Shown piece after piece: positions 1,088 through 30,764 of a DNA stretch of 64,000 bases. The notes beneath the pieces were generated by a model that did no database searches, was not told where the DNA came from, and was given only the letters and a program-made list of their open reading frames with translations. Within the stretch, counting starts at the first letter, position 1. Each line of letters opens with the position of its first letter. Both the position numbers and the translations under genes were made by a program. The DNA is from Spirochaetia bacterium. Lineage in GTDB: Bacteria > Spirochaetota > Spirochaetia > SZUA-6 > Bin103. The stretch covers positions 160,001-224,000 of the forward strand of contig CBDAOI010000004.1 in the NCBI GenBank assembly GCA_965198005.1, written 5' to 3'.

Positions 1088-1981
1088 TTACGGAGCGGGC
1101 TGCGGGGCCTCCGGCTGCTGCGGTTCGTGCCGTTCGCGCGCCCAAGCGCGGGTGAGCTGCGCCAGCTCGCCGGCGGCGGTCGCGCCAACTTCCACGAATC
1201 GAGTAACCCGGCCGAAGCGGAGGTCGAGATACTCGTGCGCCAGCAGGTTGCGCAACGGCGCCAGCGGCTGCAGCCGTCCCGACAGGCTGCTAAAGGCTTC
1301 CAGGGCTTCCAGTTCGCCCAGGATTTGGCCGTAGGTATACGGAACCGGTCCCGGCGCGGCGGCCAGCACGATCTTGCCGATGTCGATCGCGGCGTTGATC
1401 AGCGTTTCCACCCAGCGGTCCAGGTTGCGGCGGAAGTCGCGATCGGAGCGATAGCGCTCCAGCGTGCCATCTCGAAATCGGGCGCGGTCCTCCAACTCGG
1501 ATTCGATGAAATCGACGATCCGTAGCAGCCGGCTGCGGTCGACGGCAGACAGCGACCGACCGCGGTCACGGATGGTGCGGTATTCGCGTTCGGTTTGGAG
1601 GAAATCGATCGCCACCGTGGTGACGGCCAGGAAGTAGCGGGTATACAGCGCCCGATCGCGCATCAGGACCACGTGTCCGCGACCTAGCGCCTCCGCACAC
1701 ACCGTCGCCGGTGCGCGATTCAGCACGAGGAGTTCGACGTTGCGCCCGGTGGCGCGCTCCAGGGCGATCTGGATCTCGGCCTCACTCTCGATCTCCCGTT
1801 CGCGCTCTACTTCGAGTGCTCCGGCCGACGCGCCGTAAACCGCGACGTCGAGGTCTGAGTCGACTCGCAGCCGGCCGGTGGCGGCTGATCCGAACAGGAC
1901 GGCGAAGACCAGTTGCGGGAAACGTTCCAGCTCCGTGCTGATCGTCGCGACGATCTCATCGGTTGCCTGCGGAGGCCCCAT
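1088..1981 (-). CDS. Fused MNT antitoxin / HEPN (DUF86, HepT-like) RNase
   Basis: N-terminal LFGSAATGRLRVDSDLDVAV; C-terminal RNLLAHEY (Rx4H HEPN motif). Confidence 0.85.
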   Translation of the reverse strand: MGPPQATDEIVATISTELERFPQLVFAVLFGSAATGRLRVDSDLDVAVYGASAGALEVEREREIESEAEIQIALERATGRNVELLVLNRAPATVCAEALGRGHVVLMRDRALYTRYFLAVTTVAIDFLQTEREYRTIRDRGRSLSAVDRSRLLRIVDFIESELEDRARFRDGTLERYRSDRDFRRNLDRWVETLINAAIDIGKIVLAAAPGPVPYTYGQILGELEALEAFSSLSGRLQPLAPLRNLLAHEYLDLRFGRVTRFVEVGATAAGELAQLTRAWARERHEPQQPEAPQPAP

Positions 1982-5052: not shown

Positions 5053-5419
5053 CCGAAGCGACGAGTATCGCTAACTCACGCCGTGGACTCGGAGGGCGGC
5101 GCCGTCGATCGGGTCGGCGGCGGCCGAGGCCCGGAGCTGGAGGTCGCGCCCGAGCCGGAGGCTGAGCCGGGGCCGGAGGCGGGGCGCCAAGTGAGGTGAG
5201 CCAGCACCGTCGCTCCGTGCCCCGGGATTGGGGTGCCAGCTACCGTTGGCCGTTGGTCAGTGGGGGAGTAAAGCGCGCCCACCGGCTGGGGAACACATCA
5301 CCGACCGTCGCGACTCACGGGAGCCGGGCACGAGCAGGCTCCAATCGCTCTATCTGATTCCCACCAAACGAAATAAAGTTACCAGCAATACCCGTTCACC
5401 GAGAATTGCTGTACTTCGA

Positions 5420-5559
5420 CGCGGCTGGTTGACCCGGGCTGCAGGTCCGTGCTACGGTCGCACGGTAGAGCCATGAGCTGTCAGATTTCTTCGATGTTTT
5501 TGCCGCGGCTGGTTGATCCGAGTCGCACGTCCGTGGTACGGTCGCACAGTAAAGTCATG
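5420..5559 (+). repeat. Two imperfect 56-bp direct repeats (5420-5475, 5504-5559)
   Basis: cgcggctggttgaYccg...gtccgtgStacggtcgcacRgtaRagYcatg, period 84 bp. Confidence 0.75.
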
Positions 5560-5629
5560 CACGGCCCCTGTAGGCCCCCACAACAAGTTAGCGCTTATGC
5601 CCCCTGTACCCTTTATAGAGATTAGATAG

Positions 5630-5860
5630 TTCGCCAGGGACTGCTAGAATCCCAGGCGGGCAAGGCAGCCTACCGGGAGCAACCTTGAGCCCCCCGCGCC
5701 GTAGAGCGCCCGGGGGGGACATGTGCCCCGGTAGGAGTGCCGCGATGGATACCCAGTGAGGAGTAGTGCCAGGTGGGAAGGTGCCAGGAGCACCGGAGCA
5801 CCGGAGCACCAGTACAGGGGTGGAACGACATCGTGGCAGCCGAGCTCCACAATCTCGGGA
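5630..5860 (+). ncRNA. Putative IS110 bridge RNA
   Basis: 5' hairpin, stem cctaccggg/cccggtagg (5669-5735) with internal loop, and stem tgccgcgatg/catcgtggca (5738-5838) enclosing donor-matching segments. Confidence 0.7.
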
Positions 5861-5869
5861 GGTGACAGG

Positions 5870-7123
5870 ATGTCAACCGAACAGACCGAACAGTGGTTCG
5901 TGGGTATCGATTGGGCGACCAGGCAACATCAGATCTGTGTGCTTGAGGGTGACGGGGAGGTGGTCGCGGAACGGCAGGTGGACCATAGCGGCGCCGGCAT
6001 CGCCGACTTGTGCGCGTGGTTGCACGAGCTATCGGGCGGGCACCCGGAGCGCGTGCACGCGGCGATCGAGATGCCGCATGGCGCGGTGGTCGAGATGCTG
6101 CTGGAGCGGGAGGTGCAGGTGTACGCGATCAATCCCAAGCAGCTGGATCGATTTCGTGACCGGTTTACGGTGGCCGGCGCCAAGGATGACCGGCGCGACG
6201 CGCGGGTGTTGGCAGACTCGCTGCGCACCGACCGCCGCAGCTTTCGTCAGTTGCAGGTGCAGGCACCGCCGGTGATCGAGTTGCGGGAATGGTCGCGCCT
6301 GACTGCCGAGTTGCAGGAGGAACGCAACGGGCTGATCAATCGCATGCGCGAGCAACTGCGCCGCTACTACCCGCAGCTGATCGAGCTGGGCGGTGACCTC
6401 GGCGCGGGCTGGGTTCTGGAGTTGTGGGAGAAGGCGCCGACGCCGGCGGAGGCAGCGCGGGTCCGGAAGGCGTCGGTCGCGGCCATCCTGAAGCGCAACC
6501 GCATCCGGCGCCACGCTGCTGCCGGTGTGCTGGGCATCCTGCGGCAGCAGCCGCTTGAGGTGGGCCGCGGGACGATAGCGGCGGCTACGGCGCACATCGC
6601 GAGCGTGATCGCCCGGCTGAAGCTGGTCGACCAGCAACTCAAACAGGCGCACAGCCGGCTCGACGAACTGCTGGCCGAGATTGTGGCCGACGACGACTCG
6701 GGTGAACCAGAAGAGCGGCGTGACGCCGTCATCCTGCGTTCGATGCCCGGTGTCGGTCGGATCGTGCTCGCCACGCTGCTGGCCGAAGCCTCACAGCCTC
6801 TGGCTGAGCGAGACTACCACAGGTTGCGGATTCTGACCGGGGTGGCGCCGGTGACCAAGCGGTCGGGGAAGAGTTGCCAGGTGAGCATGCGCCGGGCCTG
6901 CAACCAGCGGCTGAGCAACGCGATGTATCACTGGGCGCGGGTGGCGATCCAGCACGATCCGGTGAGTCGGGAGCGGTATGCGGCGCTGCGCGCGCGCGGG
7001 CAGCGCCATGGCCGGGCGCTGCGTACGGTCGCGGACCGGTTGCTCGCGGTGGCGTGCGCGATGCTGCGTGACCGCACGCAGTTTGATCCACAGCACCGGG
7101 CTCCGCGACCGCTGACCGCCTGA
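5870..7123 (+). CDS. IS110-family DEDD transposase/recombinase
   Basis: FVGIDWA, AIE, AKDDRRDA (DEDD), MPGVG, GVAPVTKRSGKS; RBS gggagg. Confidence 0.95.
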   Translation: MSTEQTEQWFVGIDWATRQHQICVLEGDGEVVAERQVDHSGAGIADLCAWLHELSGGHPERVHAAIEMPHGAVVEMLLEREVQVYAINPKQLDRFRDRFTVAGAKDDRRDARVLADSLRTDRRSFRQLQVQAPPVIELREWSRLTAELQEERNGLINRMREQLRRYYPQLIELGGDLGAGWVLELWEKAPTPAEAARVRKASVAAILKRNRIRRHAAAGVLGILRQQPLEVGRGTIAAATAHIASVIARLKLVDQQLKQAHSRLDELLAEIVADDDSGEPEERRDAVILRSMPGVGRIVLATLLAEASQPLAERDYHRLRILTGVAPVTKRSGKSCQVSMRRACNQRLSNAMYHWARVAIQHDPVSRERYAALRARGQRHGRALRTVADRLLAVACAMLRDRTQFDPQHRAPRPLTA

Positions 7124-7290
7124 TGGGGGAAGGTGGGCCGGGCGCGGGAAGCGTCGTCCCCGCCGCTCACGGGAGCGACCGGAGACCCGGCAGGAGGCGC
7201 GGTGAGACTGCTCGGCGCGAACCGGCACCGGTGCACGGAAATCCGAACTTTTGACCTGTTACGTAACGGAGCGTAACGGGAAGGAGAGCA

Positions 7291-7578
7291 GTGGCGGTAA
7301 GTAACGCGGAACGACAACGGCGCTATCGAGAGCGCCGCAAGGCAGCGCAGCCCCGGGTGCAGTACCGCAGGCCGCAAGACCGCAGGTCCCGACCGCAGCG
7401 CTGGCAGGATGCGGTGGGCACCCTGCTCGACCTCCAGGGTGAGTATCAAGCGTGGCTCGACCACTTGCCCGACAGTCTCCAGGAGTCCGCGGTCGCACAG
7501 CGGCTGGAGGCGATGTGCGGGCTTGATCTTGCCGAACTGGAGAGCGTCGAGCCGCCGCGCGGGTATGGGCGCGAATGA
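7291..7578 (+). CDS. Small hypothetical protein with a basic N-terminal helix (NAERQRRYRERR)
   Basis: GTG start after ggagag; palindrome gttacgtaac at 7259-7268 upstream. Confidence 0.65.
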   Translation: MAVSNAERQRRYRERRKAAQPRVQYRRPQDRRSRPQRWQDAVGTLLDLQGEYQAWLDHLPDSLQESAVAQRLEAMCGLDLAELESVEPPRGYGRE

Positions 7579-8021
7579 GGGGGGCTCTGCAGCCCGCACC
7601 TCGCGTCGTTCCTGACCTGCAAGCGCTGATCAGTGCCGGTCTCGGATTGATGTTCGAGGTGGCACACGGGAGCCGGGTGGCGGACCGCGCGGCGTCAGCG
7701 GTGTCAGCGGTGGTAGGAAACGGCTTTGACGGGCATTTTGCGGGATTCCGGGGGGTACTGGGTTTGGAAGGCCGTCAGGGGGCCGCTATGAGGCCGACGC
7801 GGACGCCGCCGAGCGGCGGCTGCCGGCCAATCGGCGGTGAAACGGGATCGTGGCGGCGACTCGACCGGCAGCCGCGCGGCAGGCAGCCGGCTTGGAACAG
7901 CAGCCCGACGACCGCACGCGGCGGGGCCTTCGATTGCTGGTCCAGGTGAGAGCCGGGGTGAGCGGTGTCGGCACGGCTTTGACGGGCATTTTGCGGGATT
8001 CCGGGGGGTACCCTGGGGTAT

Positions 8022-9937
8022 GAGCGCCAGGCTAACTGGCATATGACAGAGGGTGAAAGTCCCTCGGAACGAAGGAGCAGCCAATCCACGTTTCTCCGCG
8101 AGCCGTGCGTTGGCACCTGCGAGGGTGCAGGCGAAGCGTCGGCAGCGGTGCGTGCGGGCAGAGTTATGGAGCGCCGCAAAATACGACATCTGGAGTGCCG
8201 AGACTCTGTACTCGGTCGAAGGCAACACCGGTCGAGCCAGTATGGTGAGGATCGACCGGGCTCCACGGCGTCGAAGAACTCAGGCACGTACGTACGTCAT
8301 ATACCGGGACCTGGGAGGTCTTCGGGTCGTCCCGGCGAGTCGTCGCCGGGACCGCGGAGGGAAGGCGTGAGGCTGGACCAAAGATGAACGACCCGAAGGA
8401 GTCGGACATGGGCATAGTAGCGGCGAAGCCGGCGAACAAGGGAGCGCAAGCGACTGCGGAGACGGTGGAGCGAAGGCCCATGACCAACGGGAATTCGCAA
8501 GGTCAAAGCACGGGCCGGACGCAGAGTCGGGCAACCGTGACACAGGCGGCCGAGCGGATACGGCAATTCGTAAAGAGAGAACCGCAGGAGAAACTCACTG
8601 CGCTGCTGCACCACGTGACGCCGGAAGCGCTGCGGGTGGCCTATTACGCGCTGAAGCGTGAAGCGGCCCCGGGGGTGGACGGGATGACGTGGCGGGAGTA
8701 CGAGACGGGGTTGGAAGTGCGCTTGCACGACCTGCACCGGCGAGTACACACAGGAGCGTACCGAGCGACCCCGGTACGGCGGGTCAACATCGACAAGCCG
8801 GACGGAGGCACACGACCGCTGGGGGTGGCCGCGCTGGAGGACAAGATCGTCCAGAAGGCCGTGGTGGATGTGATCCTGACACCGATCTATGAGGAGGAAT
8901 TTCTCGGGATCAGCTATGGGTTTCGACCGGGGCGCGGGGCACACGATGCGTTGGACGCACTGGCCTACGCCATCGAACGGCGCAAAGTGAACTGGATATT
9001 GGACGCGGACATTCGCGGCTACTTCGATTCGATCTCGCGGGACTGGTTGATCAGATTCCTGGAGCATCGGATTGGAGATCGGCGGGTGCTGCGGCTGATA
9101 AAGAAGTGGCTGCGCGCTGGGGTACTGGAAGAAGGCCGACAGATCGACGCGGGGCGGGGTACAGCGCAAGGGTCGGTGATTTCACCGATGCTCGCGAATA
9201 TATACTTGCACTACGTGTTGGACCTGTGGGTCACCAAGAAGTGGCGGCCGCAGGAGGCGCGCGGAGACATGATCATAGTGCGCTACGCAGATGACTATGT
9301 CGCCGGGTTCGAGCATCGTGACGATGCGGAACGCTTCCTGCGGGAACTGAAGGAGCGATTCAGAGGCTTCGAGCTGGAACTGAACGCCGACAAGACCCGA
9401 CTCCTCGAGTTTGGACGGTATGCCGAAAGGAACCGCCGAGCACGTGGGGAAGGGCGACCGGAGACGTTCGACTTTCTGGGTTTCACGCATTATTGCAGGA
9501 AGGACAGGAAAGGACGCTTCGGGCTGGGGCGGAAGCCAATTCGGAAGCGGATGAATCGTACGCTGAAGAGGATCAAGATCGAGCTCCGCAGACGAATGCA
9601 TGATGACGTGATGGAAACCGGGCGCTGGCTGGGACGGGTACTGCGCGGATGGCTCAACTACTACGCGGTACCCACCAGCTACCGCTATCTGCACCGATTC
9701 GTGTGGCGTCTGCGAGGAATCTGGGTAAAGATTCTACGCCGGAGGTCCCAGAAGGACCGATTCTCCTGGGCTTGGATGCTGGCGATCAGCATCAAGCTGT
9801 GGCCCCAACCCCGAATCGTACACTCATGGCCGGACCGGCGATTTGCCGTCAACCACCGAAGGTAGGAGCCGGATGGTTTAACGACCACGTCCGGATCTGT
9901 GCGGGGGGCGCCGGGTAACCGGCGTTCCTACCGCGCC
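8022..9937 (+). mobile_element. Group II intron copy 1 (IIB-like, endonuclease-minus)
   Basis: Boundaries from the empty site at 12541/12542; DV gagccggatg..acgtccggatc; DVI with bulged A at -8; 1916 bp. Confidence 0.92.
8384..9865 (+). CDS. ltrA: Group II intron reverse transcriptase/maturase (true start probably GTG 8537)
   Basis: APGVDG, RPLG, SYGFRPG, QGSVISPMLANIYLH, RYADD, FDFLGFTH, GWLNYY; no HNH domain. Confidence 0.95.
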   Translation: MNDPKESDMGIVAAKPANKGAQATAETVERRPMTNGNSQGQSTGRTQSRATVTQAAERIRQFVKREPQEKLTALLHHVTPEALRVAYYALKREAAPGVDGMTWREYETGLEVRLHDLHRRVHTGAYRATPVRRVNIDKPDGGTRPLGVAALEDKIVQKAVVDVILTPIYEEEFLGISYGFRPGRGAHDALDALAYAIERRKVNWILDADIRGYFDSISRDWLIRFLEHRIGDRRVLRLIKKWLRAGVLEEGRQIDAGRGTAQGSVISPMLANIYLHYVLDLWVTKKWRPQEARGDMIIVRYADDYVAGFEHRDDAERFLRELKERFRGFELELNADKTRLLEFGRYAERNRRARGEGRPETFDFLGFTHYCRKDRKGRFGLGRKPIRKRMNRTLKRIKIELRRRMHDDVMETGRWLGRVLRGWLNYYAVPTSYRYLHRFVWRLRGIWVKILRRRSQKDRFSWAWMLAISIKLWPQPRIVHSWPDRRFAVNHRR

Positions 9938-10286
9938 CTCCCTGGGTTTGGAAGGCCGTCAGGGGGCCGCTATGAGGCCGACGCGGACGCCGAGCGGCCC
10001 GCTGCCGGCCAATCGGCGGTGAATGCCGGCCCTGAACGGGTCCGAGTGCCGGGATCGTCGGCGTAGCGGCGCGCATGCTGGCGCGCGGGCGGCGAACTCG
10101 ACCGGCAGCCGCGCGGCAGGCAGCCGGCTTGGAACAGCAACCCGACGACCGCACGCGGCGGGGCCTTCGATTGCTGGTCCAGGTGGGAGCCGGGGTGGCG
10201 GACCGCGCGGCGTCAGCGGTGTCAGCGGTGGTGGGAAACGGCTTTGACGGGCACTTTGCGGGATTCCGGGGGGTACCCTGGGGTAT

Positions 10287-12202
10287 GAGCGCCAGGCTAA
10301 CTGGCATATGACAGAGGGTGAAAGTCCCTCGGAACGAAGGAGCAGCCAATCCACGTTTCTCCGCGAGCCGTGCGTTGGCACCTGCGAGGGTGCAGGCGAA
10401 GCGTCGGCAGCGGTGCGTGCGGGCAGAGTTATGGAGCGCCGCAAAATACGACATCTGGAGTGCCGAGACTCTGTACTCGGTCGAAGGCAACACCGGTCGA
10501 GCCAGTATGGTGAGGATCGACCGGGCTCCACGGCGTCGAAGAACTCAGGCACGTACGTACGTCATATACCGGGACCTGGGAGGTCTTCGGGTCGTCCCGG
10601 CGAGTCGTCGCCGGGACCGCGGAGGGAAGGCGTGAGGCTGGACCAAAGATGAACGACCCGAAGGAGTCGGACATGGGCATAGTAGCGGCGAAGCCGGCGA
10701 ACAAGGGAGCGCAAGCGACTGCGGAGACGGTGGAGCGAAGGCCCATGACCAACGGGAATTCGCAAGGTCAAAGCACGGGCCGGACGCAGAGTCGGGCAAC
10801 CGTGACACAGGCGGCCGAGCGGATACGGCAATTCGTAAAGAGAGAACCGCAGGAGAAACTCACTGCGCTGCTGCACCACGTGACGCCGGAAGCGCTGCGG
10901 GTGGCCTATTACGCGCTGAAGCGTGAAGCGGCCCCGGGGGTGGACGGGATGACGTGGCGGGAGTACGAGACGGGGTTGGAAGTGCGCTTGCACGACCTGC
11001 ACCGGCGAGTACACACAGGAGCGTACCGAGCGACCCCGGTACGGCGGGTCAACATCGACAAGCCGGACGGAGGCACACGACCGCTGGGGGTGGCCGCGCT
11101 GGAGGACAAGATCGTCCAGAAGGCCGTGGTGGATGTGATCCTGACACCGATCTATGAGGAGGAATTTCTCGGGATCAGCTATGGGTTTCGACCGGGGCGC
11201 GGGGCACACGATGCGTTGGACGCACTGGCCTACGCCATCGAACGGCGCAAAGTGAACTGGATATTGGACGCGGACATTCGCGCCTACTTCGATTCGATCT
11301 CGCGGGACTGGTTGATCAGATTCCTGGAGCATCGGATTGGAGATCGGCGGGTGCTGCGGCTGATAAAGAAGTGGCTGCGCGCTGGGGTACTGGAAGAAGG
11401 CCGACAGATCGACGCGGGGCGGGGTACAGCGCAAGGGTCGGTGATTTCACCGATGCTCGCGAATATATACTTGCACTACGTGTTGGACCTGTGGGTCACC
11501 AAGAAGTGGCGGCCGCAGGAGGCGCGCGGAGACATGATCATAGTGCGCTACGCAGATGACTATGTCGCCGGGTTTGAATACCGGGACGATGCGGAACGCT
11601 TCCTGCGGGAACTGAAGGAGCGATTCAGAGGCTTCGAGCTGGAACTGAACGCCGACAAGACCCGACTCCTCGAGTTTGGACGGTATGCCGAAAGGAACCG
11701 CCGAGCACGTGGGGAAGGGCGACCGGAGACGTTCGACTTTCTGGGTTTCACGCATTATTGCAGGAAGGACAGGAAAGGACGCTTCGGGCTGGGGCGGAAG
11801 CCAATTCGGAAGCGGATGAATCGTACGCTGAAGAGGATCAAGATCGAGCTCCGCAGACGCATGCATGATGACGTGATGGAAACCGGGCGCTGGCTGGGAC
11901 GGGTACTGCGCGGATGGCTCAACTACTACGCGGTACCCACCAGCTACCGCTACCTGCACCGATTCGTGTGGCGTCTGCGAGGAATCTGGGTAAAGATTCT
12001 ACGCCGGAGGTCCCAGAAGGACCGATTCTCCTGGGCTTGGATGCTGGCGATCAGCATCAAGCTGTGGCCCCAACCCCGAATCGTACACTCATGGCCGGAC
12101 CGGCGATTTGCCGTCAACCACCGAAGGTAGGAGCCGGATGGTTTAACGACCACGTCCGGATCTGTGCGGGGGGCGCCGGGTAACCGGCGTTCCTACCGCG
12201 CC
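10287..12202 (+). mobile_element. Group II intron copy 2
   Basis: 1916 bp, near-identical to copy 1, same target site. Confidence 0.92.
10649..12130 (+). CDS. ltrA: Group II intron reverse transcriptase/maturase
   Basis: As copy 1, with DIRAYFD and FEYRDD variants. Confidence 0.95.
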   Translation: MNDPKESDMGIVAAKPANKGAQATAETVERRPMTNGNSQGQSTGRTQSRATVTQAAERIRQFVKREPQEKLTALLHHVTPEALRVAYYALKREAAPGVDGMTWREYETGLEVRLHDLHRRVHTGAYRATPVRRVNIDKPDGGTRPLGVAALEDKIVQKAVVDVILTPIYEEEFLGISYGFRPGRGAHDALDALAYAIERRKVNWILDADIRAYFDSISRDWLIRFLEHRIGDRRVLRLIKKWLRAGVLEEGRQIDAGRGTAQGSVISPMLANIYLHYVLDLWVTKKWRPQEARGDMIIVRYADDYVAGFEYRDDAERFLRELKERFRGFELELNADKTRLLEFGRYAERNRRARGEGRPETFDFLGFTHYCRKDRKGRFGLGRKPIRKRMNRTLKRIKIELRRRMHDDVMETGRWLGRVLRGWLNYYAVPTSYRYLHRFVWRLRGIWVKILRRRSQKDRFSWAWMLAISIKLWPQPRIVHSWPDRRFAVNHRR

Positions 12203-13269
12203 CTCCCTGGGTTTGGAAGGCCGTCAGGGGGCCGCTATGAGGCCGCGAGCGGCCCGCTGCCGGCCAATCGGCCGTGAATGCCGGCCCTGAACGGGTCCGA
12301 GTGCCGGGATCGTCGGCGTAGCGGCGCGCATGCTGGCGCGCGGGCGGCGAACTCGACCGGCAGCCGCGCGGCAGGCAGCCGGCTTGGAACAGCAACCCGA
12401 CGACCGCACGCGGCGGGGCCTTCGATTGCTGGTCCAGGTGGGAGCCGGGGTGGCGGACCGGGCGGCGTCAGCGGTGTCAGCGGTGGTGGGAAACGGCTTT
12501 GACGGGCATTTTGCGGGATTCCGGGGGGTGCCCTGGGGTATCTCCCTGGGTTTGGAAGGCCGTCAGGGGGCCGCCATGAGGCCGACTCGGACGCCGAGCG
12601 GCCCGCTGCCGGCCAATCGGCCGTGAATGCCGGCCCTGGAGGGGTCCGAGTGCCGAGATCGTCGCCGCGGCGGCGCTCGTGCTGCCGCTCCTGTCCGAGC
12701 AGCCTCGAGCGCCGCGATGGCCGCAGCAACGGCCCATTCCCCCCGCGTGCGGCGACTGACGGAGCAGCGGCTCGACGTTCAAGGAGGTCTGCCGTCGTTA
12801 GCTGTCCTGGAGGTGGCTGCGACCCGACCAGGCTGGGCTGCGGGCGGTGGCGGCGCGGTCAATACGGAGCCAGCGGTGCCGGGAATCGGCGTTGACGGGT
12901 GTTGCCGGGGGTGCCCCAGGCTACCCCCGAGGGGCTGGAAGGCCCTCAGGGGGCCGCTATGAGGCCGCGAGCGGTCCGTTGCCGGCCAATCGGCGGTGAA
13001 TGCCGGCCCTGAACGGGTCCGAGTGCCGGGATCGTCGGCGTAGCGGCGCGCATGCTGCCGCGCGGTCGGCGAACTCGACCGGCAGCGGTGCGGCAGGCAG
13101 AGGCAGCCGGCTTGGAACAGCAACCCGACGACCGCACGCGGCGGGGCCTTCGATTGCTGGTCCAGGTGGGAGTCGGGGTGGCGGACCGCGCGGCGTCAGC
13201 GGTGTCAGCGGTGGTGGGAAACGGCTTTGACGGGCACTTTGCGGGATTCCGGGGGGTACCCTGGGGTAT

Positions 13270-15185
13270 GAGCGCCAGGCTAACTGGCATATGACAGAGG
13301 GTGAAAGTCCCTCGGAACGAAGGAGCAGCCAATCCACGTTTCTCCGCGAGCCGTGCGTTGGCACCTGCGAGGGTGCAGGCGAAGCGTCGGCAGCGGTGCG
13401 TGCGGGCAGAGTTATGGAGCGCCGCAAAATACGACATCTGGAGTGCCGAGATTCTGTACTCGGTCGAAGGCAACACCGGTCGAGCCAGTATGGTGAGGAC
13501 CGACCGGGCTCCACGGCGTCGAAGAACTCAGGCACGTACGTACGTCATATACCGGGACCTGGGAGGTCTTCGGGTCGTCCCGGCGGGTCGTCGCCGGGAC
13601 CGCGGAGGGAAGGCGTGAGGCTGGACCGAAGATGAACGACCCGAAGAAGTCGGACATGGGCATAGTAGCGGCGAAGCCGGCGAACAAGGGAGCGCAAGCG
13701 ACTGCGGAGACGGTGGAGCGAAGGCCCATGACCAACGGGAATTCGCAAGGTCAAAGCACGGGCCGGACGCAGAGTCGGGCAACCGTGACACAGGCGGCCG
13801 AGCGGATACGGCAATTCGTAAAGAGAGAACCGCAGGAGAAACTCACTGCGCTGCTGCACCACGTGACGCCGGAAGCGCTGCAGGTGGCCTATTACGCGCT
13901 GAAGCGCGAAGCGGCCCCGGGGGTGGACGGGATGACGTGGCGGGAGTACGAGACGGGGTTGGAAGTGCGCTTGCACGACCTGCACCGGCGAGTACACACA
14001 GGAGCGTACCGAGCGACCCCGGTACGGCGGGTCAACATCGACAAGCCGGACGGAGGCACACGACCGCTGGGGGTGGCCGCGCTGGAGGACAAGATCGTCC
14101 AGAAGGCCGTGGTGGATGTGATCCTGACACCGATCTATGAGGAGGAATTTCTCGGGATCAGCTATGGGTTTCGACCGGGGCGAGGGGCACACGATGCGTT
14201 GGACGCACTGGCCTACGCCATCGAACGGCGCAAAGTGAACTGGATATTGGACGCGGACATCCGGGCCTACTTCGATTCGATCTCGCGGGACTGGTTGATC
14301 AGATTCCTGGAGCATCGGATTGGAGATCGGCGGGTACTGCGGCTGATAAAGAAGTGGCTGCGCGCTGGGGTACTGGAAGAAGGCCGACAGATCGACGCGG
14401 GGCGGGGTACAGCGCAAGGGTCGGTGATTTCACCGATGCTCGCGAATATCTATCTGCACTACGTGTTGGACCTGTGGGTCACCAAGAAGTGGCGGCCGCA
14501 GGAGGCGCGCGGAGACATGATCATAGTGCGCTACGCAGATGACTACGTTGCCGGGTTTGAATACCGGGACGATGCGGAACGCTTCCTGCGGGAACTGAAG
14601 GAGCGATTCAGAGACTTCGAGCTGGAACTGAACGCCGACAAGACCCGACTCCTCGAGTTTGGACGGTATGCCGAAAGGAACCGCCGAGCACGTGGGGAAG
14701 GGCGACCGGAGACGTTCGACTTTCTGGGCTTCACGCATTATTGCAGGAAGGACAGGAAAGGACGCTTCGGGCTGGGGCGGAAGCCAATTCGGAAGCGGAT
14801 GAATCGTACCCTGAAGAGGATCAAGATCGAGCTCCGCAGACGCATGCATGATGACGTGATGGAAACCGGGCGCTGGCTGGGACGGGTACTGCGCGGATGG
14901 CTCAACTACTACGCGGTACCCACCAGCTACCGCTACCTGCACCGATTCGTGTGGCGTCTGCGAGGAATCTGGGTAAAGATTCTACGCCGGAGGTCCCAGA
15001 AGGACCGATTCTCCTGGGCTTGGATGCTGGCGATCAGCATCAAGCTGTGGCCCCAACCCCGAATCGTACACTCATGGCCGGACCGGCGATTTGCCGTCAA
15101 CCACCGAAGGTAGGAGCCGGATGGTTTAACGACCACGTCCGGATCTGTGCGGGGGGCGCCGGGTAACCGGCGTTCCTACCGCGCC
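13270..15185 (+). mobile_element. Group II intron copy 3
   Basis: 1916 bp, same target site, additional SNPs. Confidence 0.92.
13632..15113 (+). CDS. ltrA: Group II intron reverse transcriptase/maturase
   Basis: Same motifs; intact ORF. Confidence 0.95.
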   Translation: MNDPKKSDMGIVAAKPANKGAQATAETVERRPMTNGNSQGQSTGRTQSRATVTQAAERIRQFVKREPQEKLTALLHHVTPEALQVAYYALKREAAPGVDGMTWREYETGLEVRLHDLHRRVHTGAYRATPVRRVNIDKPDGGTRPLGVAALEDKIVQKAVVDVILTPIYEEEFLGISYGFRPGRGAHDALDALAYAIERRKVNWILDADIRAYFDSISRDWLIRFLEHRIGDRRVLRLIKKWLRAGVLEEGRQIDAGRGTAQGSVISPMLANIYLHYVLDLWVTKKWRPQEARGDMIIVRYADDYVAGFEYRDDAERFLRELKERFRDFELELNADKTRLLEFGRYAERNRRARGEGRPETFDFLGFTHYCRKDRKGRFGLGRKPIRKRMNRTLKRIKIELRRRMHDDVMETGRWLGRVLRGWLNYYAVPTSYRYLHRFVWRLRGIWVKILRRRSQKDRFSWAWMLAISIKLWPQPRIVHSWPDRRFAVNHRR

Positions 15186-15389
15186 CTCCCCGGGTTTGGA
15201 AGGCCGTCAGGGGGCCGCTATGAGGCCGACTCGGACGCCGAGCGCCCCGCCGCCGGCCAATCGGCCGTGAATGCCGGCCCTGAACGGGTCCGAGTGCCGA
15301 GATCGTCGCCGCGGCGGCGCTCGTGCTGCCGCTTCTGTCCGAGCAGCCTCGAACTCAACCGGCGAGCGGCTCGCGGTTGCACCTCCGGA

Positions 15390-15997
15390 GCGCCGCGACG
15401 GCCAAGCCGGAGGGTCACACCAGCCTGTACCAGGATATCGACGGGCTGCGCCGCGGTCGGCTGCTGGACCACCGCTGCACCATCGACGCGACCGGGGACC
15501 GGCATGAATACGAGTGGGTTACCGGGGTGCCGCTGAACGGCAACCCCCGCAGTCCCAAGATCAACTTCGTGCACTACCGCATCGTACGTGCGGGCACGCC
15601 CACCTATCAAAACGCCTGGGTGACCGACTTGGTGCCCAGCGCTGGCAGCGTGGCGCGGATCGTGCGTGCGGGACGAGCACGCTGGAAGATCGAGAACGAG
15701 GGGTCGATACGCTGAAGCGCTGAAGCGCTGAAGAACCAGGGCTATCACCTGGAGCACAACTTCGGCCACGGTGACAAGTACTTGTCGGAGGCGTTCTTCG
15801 TGCCGGGCCTGCTGGCCTGTTTCATGCACCGGATATTCGAGCTGGTGGACGGTCTGTATCAGCAGGTGCGGGCTGGGTTCGGGTCGCGCCGGGAGTTCTG
15901 GGGCGCGATTCGCGCCACGTTCCGGCTATTCCTGTTCCGGTCGTGGGACCAGGTGCTGGTGCGGATGAATTCGCCGCCGCAGCCGCTGTCCGGGTAG
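15390..15997 (+). pseudogene. DDE transposase (ISNCY-like) C-terminal half, frameshifted
   Basis: WVTDL..GRARWKIENEG / TLKNQGYHLEHNFGHG; cgctgaag x3 at 15710-15733. Confidence 0.8.
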
Positions 15998-16241
15998 CCG
16001 CTCCCTGGGGAACTGAACCTGCTCCCTGAACGATCCCTGACTGGGGCTGCGGCGCAGGTGTGCCGGCGGCGCGCGGGCAACCGGCCCCGAAGGGCCGATC
16101 GCCGCACCGCGCCAGCCCGCGGCATCGGCCGAGCGGCGGTGGCTGACGGTGGTCAGGTCATCGCACGGGGCTGCATGACGGTGGCTAAATACGTCACCTG
16201 CAATCAGTTACAGAATTTCTGCCGGGTCGGGCCGTGGGTGC

Positions 16242-16535
16242 ATTCACTCGGTGGGCCAACAGGTGGGCATGGTCGCGTTTCACACTCGGAGGGCTTGAGC
16301 TTATGACAGGGCTTGCGATCTCGCCCTCGAAACTTTTCTGTAACCTTTCGGCGCCCAATGTTGCCATATCTGTTTACGATGCACCTCTGCCCCCCGTTCT
16401 CCGAGAATCGCTGTCGCGCCGTGCGGGTGCTTGCCTCCCACGGGAAGAATGGGTATATTGAAGTCGTGTATTCACTTGGTGGGCCAACAGGTGGGCATGG
16501 TCGCGTTTCACACTCGGAGGGCTTGAGCTTATGAC
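16242..16535 (+). repeat. Two 66-bp direct repeats (16242-16307, 16470-16535)
   Basis: attcactYggtgggccaacaggtgggcatggtcgcgtttcacactcggagggcttgagcttatgac. Confidence 0.95.
16431..16459 (+). promoter_or_regulatory. Sigma70-like promoter
   Basis: TTGCCT-17bp-TATATT; same at 30401-30429. Confidence 0.55.
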
Positions 16536-16584
16536 CCTCTGCCCCTCTACCAGCGGTTCCCCGAGAATCGCTGCTGTTTGCCTG

Positions 16585-16614
16585 TTGACTTGTTTGCCGC
16601 AGGCGTGCCATACT
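16585..16614 (+). promoter_or_regulatory. Sigma70-like promoter with extended -10
   Basis: TTGACT-18bp-CATACT preceded by TGn; same at 30555-30584. Confidence 0.5.
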
Positions 16615-16715
16615 AAAAGCCTCGGGTTTGAACGGATGCAAAAGATGGGTGATAACACTACTCAGCACTGCCACCGGTTAGCGGCAACGCAGCCGGCGCG
16701 TCCTATCCTCGCCTA

Positions 16716-16743
16716 CCCCCCCCCCCCCCCCCCCCCCCCCCCC
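16716..16743 (+). repeat. C28 homopolymer
   Basis: Direct count; the paralogous site is C8. Confidence 0.9.
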
Positions 16744-16914
16744 GGCGGGAGCTCCAAGAATTCGTTTCGCGGGGGTTGAAAAATGGTGAGGAGTCCCCCG
16801 CGTGGCGTTGTGACGCAGGTCCCGACGTCCGCCGAGCGGTGGGCGTTTGCATGATGGGGCGCGCACGCGGGTCCCATCTTACGTCAGCCATCCGGCAGGG
16901 CACCCTGTGCCCCA

Positions 16915-28386: not shown

Positions 28387-29166
28387 CCGGCTTGTCGATG
28401 TTGACCCGCCGTACCGGGGTCGCTCGGTACGCTCCTGTGTGTACTCGCCGGTGCAGGTCGTGCAAACGCACTTCCAACCCCGTCTCGTACTCCCGCCACG
28501 TCATCCCGTCCACCCCCGGGGCCGCTTCACGCTTCAGCGCGTAATAGGCCACCCGCAGCGCTTCCGGCGTCACGTGGTGCAGCAGCGCAGTGAGTTTCTC
28601 CTGCGGTTCTCTCTTTACGAATTGCCGTGTCCGCTCGGCCGCCTGTGTCACGGTTGCCCGACTCTGCGTCCGGCCCGTGCTTTGGCCTTGCGAATTCCCG
28701 TTGGTCATGGGCCTTCGCTCCACCGTCTCCGCAGTCGCTTGCGCTCCCTTGTTCGCCGGCTTCGCCGCTACTATGCCCATGTCCGACTCCTTCGGGTCGT
28801 TCATCTTCGGTCCAGCCTCACGCCTTCCCTCCGCGGTCCCGGCGACGACTCGCCGGGACGACCCGAAGACCTCCCAGGTCCCGGTATATGACGTACGTAC
28901 GTGCCTGAGTTCTTCGACGCCGTGGAGCCCGGTCGATCCTCACCATACTGGCTCGACCGGTGTTGCCTTCGACCGAGTACAGAATCTCGGCACTCCAGAT
29001 GTCGTATTTTGCGGCGCTCCATAACTCTGCCCGCACGCACCGCTGCCGACGCTTCGCCTGCACCCTCGCAGGTGCCAACGCACGGCTCGCGGAGAAACGT
29101 GGATTGGCTGCTCCTTCGTTCCAAGGGACTTTCACCCTCTGTCATATGCCAGTTAGCCTGGCGCTC
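28387..29166 (-). mobile_element. Group II intron copy 4, 5' 780 bp only, inverted
   Basis: Reverse complement of the intron from GAGCG to ..NIDKP; 5' flank ccctggggtac. Confidence 0.92.
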
Positions 29167-30749
29167 GTACCCCAGGGCTACCCCCGAGGGGCTGGAAGGC
29201 CCTCAGGGGGCCGCTATGAGGCCGCGAGCGGTCCGTTGCCGGCCAATCGGCGGTGAATGCCGGCCCTGAACGGGTCCGAGTGCCGAGATCGTCGCCGCGG
29301 CGGCGCTCGTGCTGCCGCTTCTGTCCGAGCAGCCTCGAACTCAACCGGCGAGCGGCTCGCGGTTGCACCTCCGGAGCGCCGCGACGGCCAAGCCGGAGGG
29401 TCACACCAGCCTGTACCAGGATATCGACGGGCTGCGCCGCGGTCGGCTGCTGGACCACCGCTGCACCATCGACGCGACCGGGGACCGGCATGAATACGAG
29501 TGGGTTACCGGGGTGCCGCTGAACAGCAAGCCCCGCAGTCCCCAGATCAACTTCGTGCACTACCGCATCGTACGGGCCGGCACGACCACCTATCAAAACG
29601 CCTGGGTGACCGACTTGGTGCCCACCGCTGGCAGCGTCGCGCGGATCGTGCGTGCGGGACGAGCACGCTGGAAGATCGAGAACGAGGGGTCGATACGCTG
29701 AAGAACCAGGGCTATCACCTGGAGCACAACTTCGGCCACGGTGACAAGTACTTGTCGGAGGCGTTCTTCGTGCCGGGCCTGCTGGCCTGTTTCATGCACC
29801 GGATATTCGAGCTGGTGGACGGTCTGTATCAGCAGGTGCGGGCTGGGTTCGGGTCGCGCCGGGAGTTCTGGGGCGCGATTCGCGCCACGTTCCGGCTATT
29901 CCTGTTCCGGTCGTGGGACCAGGTGCTGGTGCGGATGAATTCGCCGCCGCAGCCGCTGTCCGGGTAGCCGCTCCCTGGGGAACTGAACCTGCTCCCTGAA
30001 CGATCCCTGACTGGGGCTGCGGCGCAGGTGTGCCGGCCGCGCGCGGGCAACCGGCCCCGAAGGGCCGATCGCCGCACCGCGCCAGCCCGCGGCATCGGCC
30101 GAGCGGCGGTGGCTGACGGTGGTCAGGTCATCGCACGGGGCTGCATGACGGTGGCTAAATACGTCACCTGCAATCAGTTACAGAATTTCTCCCGGGTCGG
30201 GCCGTGGGTGCATTCACTCGGTGGGCCAACAGGTGGGCATGGTCGCGTTTCACACTCGGAGGGCTTGAGCTTATGACAGGGCTTGCGATCTCGCCCTCGA
30301 AACTTTTCTGTAACCTTTCGGCGCCCAATGTTGCCATATCTGTTTACGATGCACCTCTGCCCCCCGTTCTCCGAGAATCGCTGTCGCGCCGTGCGGGTGC
30401 TTGCCTCCCACGGGAAGAATGGGTATATTGAAGTCGTGTATTCACTCGGTGGGCCAACAGGTGGGCATGGTCGCGTTTCACACTCGGAGGGCTTGAGCTT
30501 ATGACCCTCTGCCCCTCTACCAGCGGTTCCCCGAGAATCGCTGCTGTTTGCCTGTTGACTTGTTTGCCGCAGGGGTGCCATACTAAAAGCCTCGGGTTTG
30601 AACGGATGCAGAAGATGGGTGATAACACTACTCAGCACTGCCACCGGTTAGCGGCAACGCAGCCGGCGCGTCCTATCCTCGCCTACCCCCCCCGACGGGA
30701 GCTCCAAGAATTCGTTTCGCGGGGGTTGAAAAATGGTGAGGAGTCCCCC
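29167..30749 (+). repeat. Second copy of the 1.6-kb module (array unit, transposase remnant, 66-bp repeats, promoters)
   Basis: Near-identical to 15186-16799 apart from the junction head. Confidence 0.92.
29375..29967 (+). pseudogene. DDE transposase (ISNCY-like) C-terminal half
   Basis: GRARWKIENEG / TLKNQGYHLEHNFGHG, frameshifted. Confidence 0.8.
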
Positions 30750-30764
30750 CCCCCCCCCCCCCCC
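30745..30764 (+). repeat. C20 homopolymer
   Basis: Direct count; the paralogous site is C5. Confidence 0.9.

Follow-up and report, generated by a model that had tools for sequence, protein, structure and literature searches.

The closest described systems are group II introns without endonuclease and insertion sequences (IS) of the IS110 family. The intron RmInt1 has no endonuclease and, according to the available sections of PMC8914252, reverse-splices into single-stranded DNA at the lagging-strand template. For IS110-type elements, stem-loop targets are described in the accessible part of 10.64898/2026.03.19.712850. Likewise, the catalogue of 274 family members gives short right ends for the IS110 group (PMC11208160, in the part consulted). 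Here we analyze a tandem non-coding array of a Spirochaetia bacterium, together with the group II introns inserted in it and the IS110-family element next to it. The window is the whole stretch of 64,000 nucleotides (nt), positions 160001-224000 of contig C4 of the source genome (G000; four contigs, 4.89 Mb, 66% G+C).

We propose that two layers of mobile DNA are superimposed at this locus, with a probability of roughly 0.6. In the first layer, units of three types (X, Y, and Z) would be non-coding modules carried in long IS110 elements and, in sister species, also in IS21. Unequal homologous recombination or replication slippage between the head and tail ends that the units share would lengthen and shorten the arrays. 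In the second layer, an endonuclease-minus group II intron would use the joint between units as its home. More precisely, its loop GUACUC would pair with GGGTRY, and the first base of the 3' exon would be C.

The array spans window positions 7668-15399 and has six units, according to sequence reading and a repeat finder. All its parts lie on the plus strand. It starts with a 90-nt sequence that we call the tail (7668-7757), located 3' of the IS110-family transposase gene. A short X unit of 264 bp follows (7758-8021), and the joint between them (7757/7758; a slash marks a boundary or an insertion point) lacks 15 bp of its core. Next come intron copy 1 (8022-9937), an X unit of 349 bp (9938-10286) composed of a head (its positions 1-137), a middle, and a tail, intron copy 2 (10287-12202), and an X unit of 339 bp (12203-12541). 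The 3' joint of the latter (12541/12542) is intact and empty. The Y unit of 379 bp (12542-12920) has its first ~147 nt in common with X and a distinct tail. Then, an X unit with a variant head (~12921-13269), intron copy 3 (13270-15185), and a partial Y unit (15186-15399), broken at position ~71 of the Y middle, complete the array. The 3' half of an unrelated IS of ~1.9 kb, multicopy in the genome (15400-16413, plus strand), cuts it short. This Y/IS breakpoint is also found at C4:338461 and, inverted, near window position 29386.

The three introns of 1,916 bp are each preceded by ...CCCTGGGGTAT and followed by CTCCC, which gives the site GGGGTAT/CTCCC. The joint near 12915-12925 is a variant, of the kind that we call mirror-type. 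Its minus-strand sequence is CCCCTCGGGGGTAGCCTGGGGCAC/CCCC, with final bases GCAC instead of GTAC, and it is empty. At other loci, sites of this type hold introns on the opposite strand. One of them is in the window: a truncated intron copy of 780 nt (28387-29166, minus strand) in a mirror-type joint (...GGGGGTAGCCCTGGGGTAC/). The earlier note on this DNA had described six units, three introns of 1,916 bp, and one empty, one deleted, and one variant joint. All of them are present.

As an additional observation, window positions 15190-16200 and 29167-30200 form an inverted duplicate of ~1 kb. It contains the partial Y and the half IS, with the truncated minus-strand intron at its inner edge, and is probably the remnant of an inversion between copies of a mobile element.

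Every tail/head joint is a near-palindrome centred on GGGGTACCC, and head and tail are imperfect inverted repeats. At the empty joint, the arms 12453-12469 and 12590-12606 (17 nt) are 82% complementary, and a second pair (12466-12474 and 12603-12611; 9 nt) is 89% complementary. As single-stranded DNA, the joint folds no better than shuffled sequences (z between -0.6 and -1.6 for four window strands; 12-52 of 200 shuffles were as good). The joints of two sister species gave z values of 0.06 and -1.57. So, the palindromic junction announced earlier stands at the sequence level but not as a stable structure. The units measure 339, 349, 351, 352, 355, and 387 bp, and 340-343 bp in the sister species G003. 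Their lengths do not differ by multiples of three, an argument against coding. A minus-strand frame of 589 codons is open in a G003 array; it has no Pfam match. The absence of a credible open reading frame (ORF) in the units, stated before, is thus maintained.

The IS110-family element begins at window position 5600 with the left end CCCCCTGTACCC, which we aligned across 8 copies. Its left part covers 5600-7757 on the plus strand. This part contains a promoter-like TTAGAT-17-TAGAAT (by eye), a predicted bridge RNA (about 5650-5885), the transposase coding sequence (5888-7123), and a small ORF for a basic product of 95 amino acids (aa) (MAVSNAERQRRYRERRK...; 7291-7578). The transposase matches Pfam DEDD_Tnp_IS110 (2e-34) and Transposase_20 (3.1e-16), and NCBIfam NF033542, 'IS110 family RNA-guided transposase' (164.7 bits; cut-off 140). 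The left end has no match in Rfam. On its left flank lies an R-type repeat (5389-5599, plus strand) ending in ...GCGCTTATG. In 9 of the 13 copies among the matches listed, a run of C comes after the end of this repeat, at once or after no more than 7 bases. In general, the left flanks of IS110 elements end in ...GCGCTTATG, ...CCTAC or ...GGTGAGGAGTC; where such a sequence is uninterrupted, a run of C comes after it.

We read the left-end RNA with the donor-loop rules for bridge RNAs given in the available part of PMC11208160. The left donor guide GUGAGGAGU is identical to the right end GGTGAGGAGTC, and the right donor guide GUACAGGGG is complementary to the left end CCCCTGTAC. These segments sit on both sides of the second internal loop, here and in relatives. 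In distant relatives, guides and ends change together: GUGGGGAGU occurs with GGTGGGGAGTC (L113, L114, L115, and L123), AUAGGAGGUC with ATAGGAGGTC (L119), and GGAGGAAGU with GGTAGGAAGTC (L122), while L120 has one mismatch. The guide-to-end rule therefore extends to at least three covarying sequence types. This pattern suggests that the left-end non-coding RNA is a bridge RNA matching both ends of the element. Another segment of it, GGAUACCCAG, is complementary to CTGGGTATC of the joint. We rejected this pairing: most joints have a one-base mismatch and the RNA segment varies in relatives. We regard it as due to chance or unexplained.

Where the element ends decides the position of the units. 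The last ~100 nt of the X unit are 95-97% identical to window 7668-7757, and in six species of the genus CCTGGGGTAC plus a head lie within 100-140 nt after the transposase gene. Relatives in other phyla (44-60% protein identity) end in ...TTGACAAA(Y)GGTGGGGAGTC shortly after the gene. We considered the tail as the right end and discarded it: distant relatives end in ...GGTGRGGAGTC, and an empty site was found. In G005 and G001, the motif GGTGAGGAGTC is located 1.3 kb beyond the transposase gene. The empty-site comparison comes from G005, where an element of 2.9 kb (L111:1213-4111) interrupts an IS5-like gene that is uninterrupted in three paralogues. Within this element we find a tail/head joint, a single head domain, and a small gene that, by eye, is ribbon-helix-helix-like. 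Guide covariation and the G005 empty site thus place the true right end (...GGTGAGGAGTC; ...TTGACAAATGGTGAGGAGTC) beyond the joint. The units are then, as far as these sequences indicate, internal cargo of IS110, between the transposase gene and the true right end.

The earlier note had instead seen a free-standing array, cassette-like or self-targeting. Both the likeness of the X tail to 7668-7757 and the relatives, which place joint and units inside IS110, speak against it. It had also named, among the findings that would speak against its view, a match of the units to an IS end and intron copies in unrelated targets. These are borne out in part: the tail is common to IS110 internal sequence, although not to an IS end, and 4 of 21 intron junctions lie in unrelated DNA.

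Several other sequences of the window and the genome resemble parts of IS110. The first right-end-like motif after the left end at 5600 is ATGGTGAGGAGTC (16783-16796, plus strand), with CCCC after it. It may be a solo end and not the partner of 5600. At window 16700-16800 and 30700-30760, and at about 30 loci of the source genome, an IS110-right-end-like ...TTGCTTAATGGTGAGGAGTC is followed by C runs of ~5-30 bases, often with ACACAC. These loci are found upstream of many ATP-binding cassette (ABC) operons for solute-binding proteins. They resemble target or solo-end sites of IS110, and their tracts may be prone to slippage. Repeat families of 200-234 bp (window 5389-5599, 16238-16307, and 16466-16535; R element at C4:685952-686185) start with CCCCCT... 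and end with ...AATGGTGAGGAGTC or ...GCGCTTATG(AC). They have many copies with 91-99% identity and may be non-autonomous IS110 derivatives. Finally, ~600 nt of conserved non-coding sequence extend from the ribbon-helix-helix-like gene to the IS110 right end in G005 (L111:3450-4060), and similarly after C4:1718143. At E <= 0.01, nothing in Rfam matches them.

The units X, Y, and Z share a head domain of ~150-175 nt and a tail ending in CCTGGGGTAY. The usual genomic order is IS110, tail / Y unit / Z head, further repeats, and then an ABC-transporter operon. Array content varies: the window has 5+ units, the array at C1:19885-21246 has 3.5, X-Y is found in G001, and Y alone at most other loci. 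More precisely, the single array of G001 reads IS110, tail / X / Y / Z. G003 has three arrays of X-like units with a period of 342-343 bp and 3.6, 3.6, and 2.6 copies, 72-74% identical to X. One of them (L041) belongs to an IS21 element, where istB flanks it on one side and the terminal repeats on the other. This insertion of ~4.1 kb holds istA, istB, and the array, and splits a histidine-kinase gene; L042 is an identical second copy elsewhere in G003. In G001, a joint and the 95-aa ORF also come after istB. Within an array, unit identity is ~95%, and a hybrid of tail and Y-tail at C4:1720749 removed one Y unit. Shared ends, variable copy number and order, the hybrid, and this identity mean that recombination or slippage suffices without a dedicated enzyme. 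We thus favour unequal homologous recombination as the route to the arrays.

All four intron copies of the window match Rfam RF02005 (group-II-D1D4-6) with 164-170 bits (gathering score 49). They cover model positions 1-225 of 225, so ribozyme domains I-IV are present in each. The three full-length copies, all on the plus strand, have an intact frame of 493 aa for a reverse transcriptase (RT)/maturase (8384-9865, 10649-12130, and 13632-15113), preceded by 362 nt of intron. The protein matches TIGR04416 (351.2 bits; cut-off 300) at residues 82-454 of 493, and RVT_1 (4.2e-35) is its sole Pfam domain. About 39 residues follow the RT/maturase model, and neither Pfam nor NCBIfam reports an HNH or other domain there. 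This agrees with the endonuclease-minus intron of the earlier description.

A domain-V-like hairpin of 32 nt (9866-9897) and a domain-VI-like stem were recognized by eye against the known consensus; Rfam D5-D6 lies outside the gathering-score matches. The 5' end is GAGCG, compared with the consensus GUGYG. Domain V begins with GAGC (AGC triad, by eye), while CGC is the domain V triad of IIC introns. Compared with structures, the RT matches 7uim (2.5e-42) and 6ar1 (3.1e-42), which we take to be IIC, then 6me0 (2e-35) and 5g2x (2.5e-33), presumably IIB and IIA.

The genome contains 15 full-length intron copies with 99-100% identity, plus many fragments. The three in the array differ pairwise at 8, 19, and 27 of 1,916 positions; copies 2 and 3 have 8 and 27 mismatches to copy 1. 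Judging from these sequences, it is a group II intron without endonuclease and appears to have been active recently. It presumably splices. The ligated exons would be identical to DNA joints that already exist empty, e.g., 12541/12542, so sequence contigs cannot reveal splicing. Copies 1 and 2 are 99.6% identical, whereas the X units behind them (9938-10286 and 12203-12541) are 96% identical. It means that the introns arrived after the units had diverged. The C1 array, paralogous to that of the window, and the sister-species arrays have no introns. Of the two relations suggested before, a repeat family exploited by the intron is favoured by these divergence values. Co-amplification with the intron is opposed by the same values and by the sister-species arrays that lack this intron.

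We counted 21 intron 5' junctions genome-wide at >=90% identity. Seventeen of them are in a unit joint, on either strand: 10 follow a tail ending in ...CCCTGG(G)GTAT, and 7 follow the mirror ...GGGGGTA(A)GCCTGGGGTAC, the other strand of the Y-tail/Z-head joint. The remaining 4 have unrelated DNA around them. Every 5' flank finishes with GGGTRY (21/21), and C is the first base of every 3' flank (18/18). The hairpin loop GUACUC (8208-8213 in copy 1) pairs with the GGGTRY directly 5' of the site, as GGGUAY or GGGUGC with G-U pairs allowed.

Related introns of other genomes (74-83% identity) occupy different targets, and their loops change with them. The loop UCUCAU occurs with ATGAGA (L080 and L082), CCGGCG or UCGGCG with CGCCGG or CGCCGA (L079, L081, and L086), and UGCUGC with GCAGUG (L105). 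In total, 10 related introns show four loop/exon combinations. From this covariation, the loop is identified as exon-binding site 1 (EBS1), paired with intron-binding site 1 (IBS1). Genome-wide, 35 copies of CCTGGGGTAY are followed by C or by the intron, 15 occupied and 20 free. On the other hand, minimal GGGTRY/C sites are 22 occupied and 2,867 free. The joint is confirmed as the preferred landing site that had been proposed. An EBS2 was sought by eye in the alignment of related introns, and none was convincing. For the IIB-like features of the earlier description, these results offer an EBS1 and no convincing EBS2.

One ectopic full-length intron (C3:964601-966516; L013:1501-3416) is located in sense orientation inside an open frame of ~539 codons. 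The part of the frame downstream of the intron has an IrrE/Peptidase_M78 domain (Pfam, 2.5e-07), and the 5' flank of the intron ends in GGGTGC.

We then considered the strand of insertion. On C4, GC skew stays positive up to about 2.1 Mb, as it does over most of C3; most of C2, and C1 beyond 100 kb, have negative skew. Of the 15 full-length introns, fourteen are on the strand of positive local skew (+/-150 kb), and at the fifteenth the skew is about 0 (-0.0002). We counted 17 tail/head and 16 mirror sites as intact, and called an orientation permissive when the sense strand of the intron would be the positive-skew strand; the empty joint 12541/12542 is of this kind. Permissive sites are occupied in 14 of 18 cases, compared with 3 of 15 non-permissive ones (Fisher p = 0.0016, overstated since the loci are partly duplicates). 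The three non-permissive occupants are all truncated (1,091, 780, and 128 nt). On C4, where IS110 is on the plus strand, the intron is in the tail/head joint. Conversely, where IS110 is on the minus strand, the intron is in the mirror joint and the tail/head joint stays empty. The joint is near-symmetric, so it offers a usable site on either strand, whichever is exposed. There is, then, an orientation bias toward the lagging-strand template, with strand roles read from skew only. The intron would enter single-stranded DNA at the replication fork, and the positive-skew strand would be the template of lagging-strand synthesis.

Some results weigh against the two-layer reading. Across species, X units retain their length and are still 72-77% identical, and this hints at a constraint that a purely selfish repeat does not explain. 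The IS110 copy of the window lost its right part to another IS, and therefore the cargo position of the units rests on other loci and on sister species. No result here tells a site-specific process at the joint apart from unequal homologous recombination. A pairing of 6 bp plus one base cannot by itself account for the preference for an 11-nt context. Considering also the lack of an EBS2 and a hairpin no better than shuffles, one target determinant is missing. The leading and lagging roles of the strands come from GC skew along four contigs and not from a mapped origin. Finally, four permissive sites are empty, including C1:20335 with a perfect core, so orientation is not sufficient.

The units could instead be mobile in their own right. 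X, Y, and Z would then be a new kind of non-coding cassettes that ride inside unrelated IS (IS110 and IS21), multiply in tandem, and are swapped through their own near-palindromic joint by an enzyme not yet recognized. The 95-aa ORF product or a host recombinase may be this enzyme. This ORF is found repeatedly beside unit sequences, in IS110, in IS21, and elsewhere (G000, G001, G004, and G005). It has no Pfam or NCBIfam match, and the protein atlas returns only widespread clusters of 'hypothetical protein'. We regard this explanation as doubtful. If it were correct, the intron would be a second-order parasite specialised on the joint of the cassettes.

A different kind of autonomy would be that of miniature inverted-repeat transposable elements (MITEs). 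Here, the units would be non-autonomous transposons with long imperfect terminal inverted repeats, inserting beside each other's ends by means of a transposase yet to be found. Head and tail are indeed imperfect inverted repeats, although they match only in patches, and the units are present in two unrelated IS families. With 340-390 bp, the units have a size common among MITEs. Moreover, non-repeat DNA adjoins three heads right at the edge of the unit (C1:203333, C4:269026, and C4:943361). However, these boundaries coincide with the insertion point of the intron and could stem from recombination between introns and a later loss of the intron. In one hybrid of this kind, the intron is still in place (C3:813795). 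Of 20 tail hits genome-wide, 18 run straight into a head or an intron and none ends against unrelated, non-repeat DNA. The other two are the core-deleted joint of the window and a tail/Y-tail hybrid behind which an intron lies on the reverse strand. Target-site duplications were not seen either. We consider that MITEs are an unlikely explanation.

The conservation of the units raises the question of selection. They could be functional DNA or RNA of the host or of the element, either an array of centromere- or iteron-like binding sites, perhaps for the 95-aa product that recurs near them, or a regulatory RNA. The intron would then be incidental. Conserved blocks do extend along the whole unit across species (72-79% identity), with its length kept. 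Contigs of RNA libraries touch parts of the units at low depth (2-8); they give no strand and the libraries may contain DNA, so they do not prove transcription. Nevertheless, RNAalifold on the plus strand predicts only 8 pairs in the head domain (covariation term +0.19), so a conserved RNA structure is not seen there. For the whole unit, support is weak (-0.91; 4 of 87 pairs compensatory). No Rfam family matches units or joints. Likewise, a scan for the joint pattern in one genome per species of 185,579 species, which may omit the genome of the window, found matches only in G001 and G003, that is, in one genus. A selected function with an incidental intron seems to us rather improbable.

Site-specific recombination is in our opinion very improbable. 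It would make the joints recombination sites and the units cassettes, with an integron-like recombinase or IS110 and its bridge RNA. The architecture resembles a cassette array, module order differs between loci, and in six species of the genus an IS110 recombinase gene is always located upstream of a joint. However, the integron integrase model TIGR02249 gave no match over the 265-bit cut-off in a 90%-complete genome (best, 109 bits). The GTTRRRY/RYYYAAC pair of attC was not seen by eye in the joints, and the unit boundary is near the palindrome centre. Both results uphold the earlier statement that the junction is not an attC site. As for IS110, the bridge-RNA loops specify a donor GGTGAGGAGTC/CCCCCTGTAC and targets ...G/poly-C instead, and the joint CCTGGGGTAC/CCCC fits neither guide, by eye. 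Furthermore, around the G003 arrays in L041 and L042, about 6 kb to either side are free of IS110 genes.

That the array is an assembly artefact is hardly credible: three near-identical 1.9-kb introns with 340-bp repeats are hard to assemble, and the short-read contigs of four public sequencing runs are fragmented, break throughout the region, and give no assembly check, but the intron copies (8-27 differences) and the units (indels) can be distinguished, a related order (IS110, tail, X, X, Y, X) is found on another contig, and similar arrays exist in two sister genomes of 1 and 5 contigs.

Other observations concern the surroundings. Window 16570-16720, and also the 3' half of Z1 (C4:685727-685950), have a promoter-like TTGACT/TTGATT-17-CATACT/TATACT. 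An AT-richer stretch of ~110 nt, a hairpin (GCACTGCCACCGGTTAGCGGCA..), and CCTAC with a C run follow it, with no Rfam match at gathering score. This stretch may be a small RNA gene. Three adjacent tyrosine-recombinase genes, similar to a 'recombinase in trio', are found at C3:787484-790228, C3:906596-909340, and C2:907145-909889. Single tyrosine-recombinase genes flank a diverged unit locus (C4:1978874-1980829). Window 1088-1981 (minus strand) has one ORF with nucleotidyltransferase (Polbeta) and HepT-like RNase domains, which looks like a fused protein of the MNT-HEPN toxin-antitoxin type. Finally, well over 100 loci of the source genome have 65-80% identity to an SBP_bac_5 and permease operon region. 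This paralogous family of SBP_bac_5 transporters is very large, and its upstream regions collect these mobile elements.

Within the two-layer reading, the intron would be a natural example of a short covarying guide, a 'safe harbour' in mobile DNA, and a strand choice set by replication. The filled face of a symmetric site would show this choice directly. The IS110 elements are two to three times the usual length, and their non-coding, array-forming cargo is the more unusual point. The cargo repeat is restricted to the genus and has no demonstrated function. If it has a role or a mobility of its own, it bears on the carrying capacity of bridge recombinases and on how nested mobile DNA is assembled.

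The behaviour of the intron recalls that of RmInt1 in ISRm2011-2 of Sinorhizobium meliloti. According to the available parts of PMC8914252 and PMC1802570, RmInt1 has no endonuclease, a home in an IS, many near-identical copies, and entry into the lagging-strand template at the fork. The first three are seen here too, and the strand bias fits the fourth. In contrast, the home here is a non-coding near-palindromic joint instead of a transposase gene, and both strands of one site are used. RmInt1 uses EBS2, whereas by eye we found none here. This comparison concerns the behaviour of the two introns.

IIC and IIC-attC introns are similar in their compact ribozyme, lack of endonuclease, short EBS1 pairing, and palindromic target, and the RT is slightly closer to IIC structures. 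However, the insertion is inside the 3' arm near the palindrome centre and not after a hairpin, and domain V begins with GAGC instead of CGC. The hairpin is no better than shuffles, and there is no T-run, attC box, or integrase. The intron therefore lacks the site features that define IIC and attC insertion.

The integron arrays with IS1111-attC and IIC-attC elements (cited in PMC11208160, in its available part) also bring together an IS110-family element, a group II intron, and an array punctuated by palindromes. On the other hand, IS110 here carries the array and does not target it, since its own targets are ...G/poly-C. With IS621 and ISPpu10, the IS110 bridge-RNA elements of the same source, also seen in part, the element of this genome shares the DEDD recombinase, the left-end RNA, and two loops matching its own ends. 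Insertion at repeated intergenic sites is another common point with elements of this kind. Nevertheless, none of the elements here is shorter than 2.9 kb, and at least 1.3 kb of cargo separates the transposase gene from the right end. This cargo includes repeat modules that can form arrays. The IS110 part is thus a member of the bridge-RNA family with an unusually long cargo.

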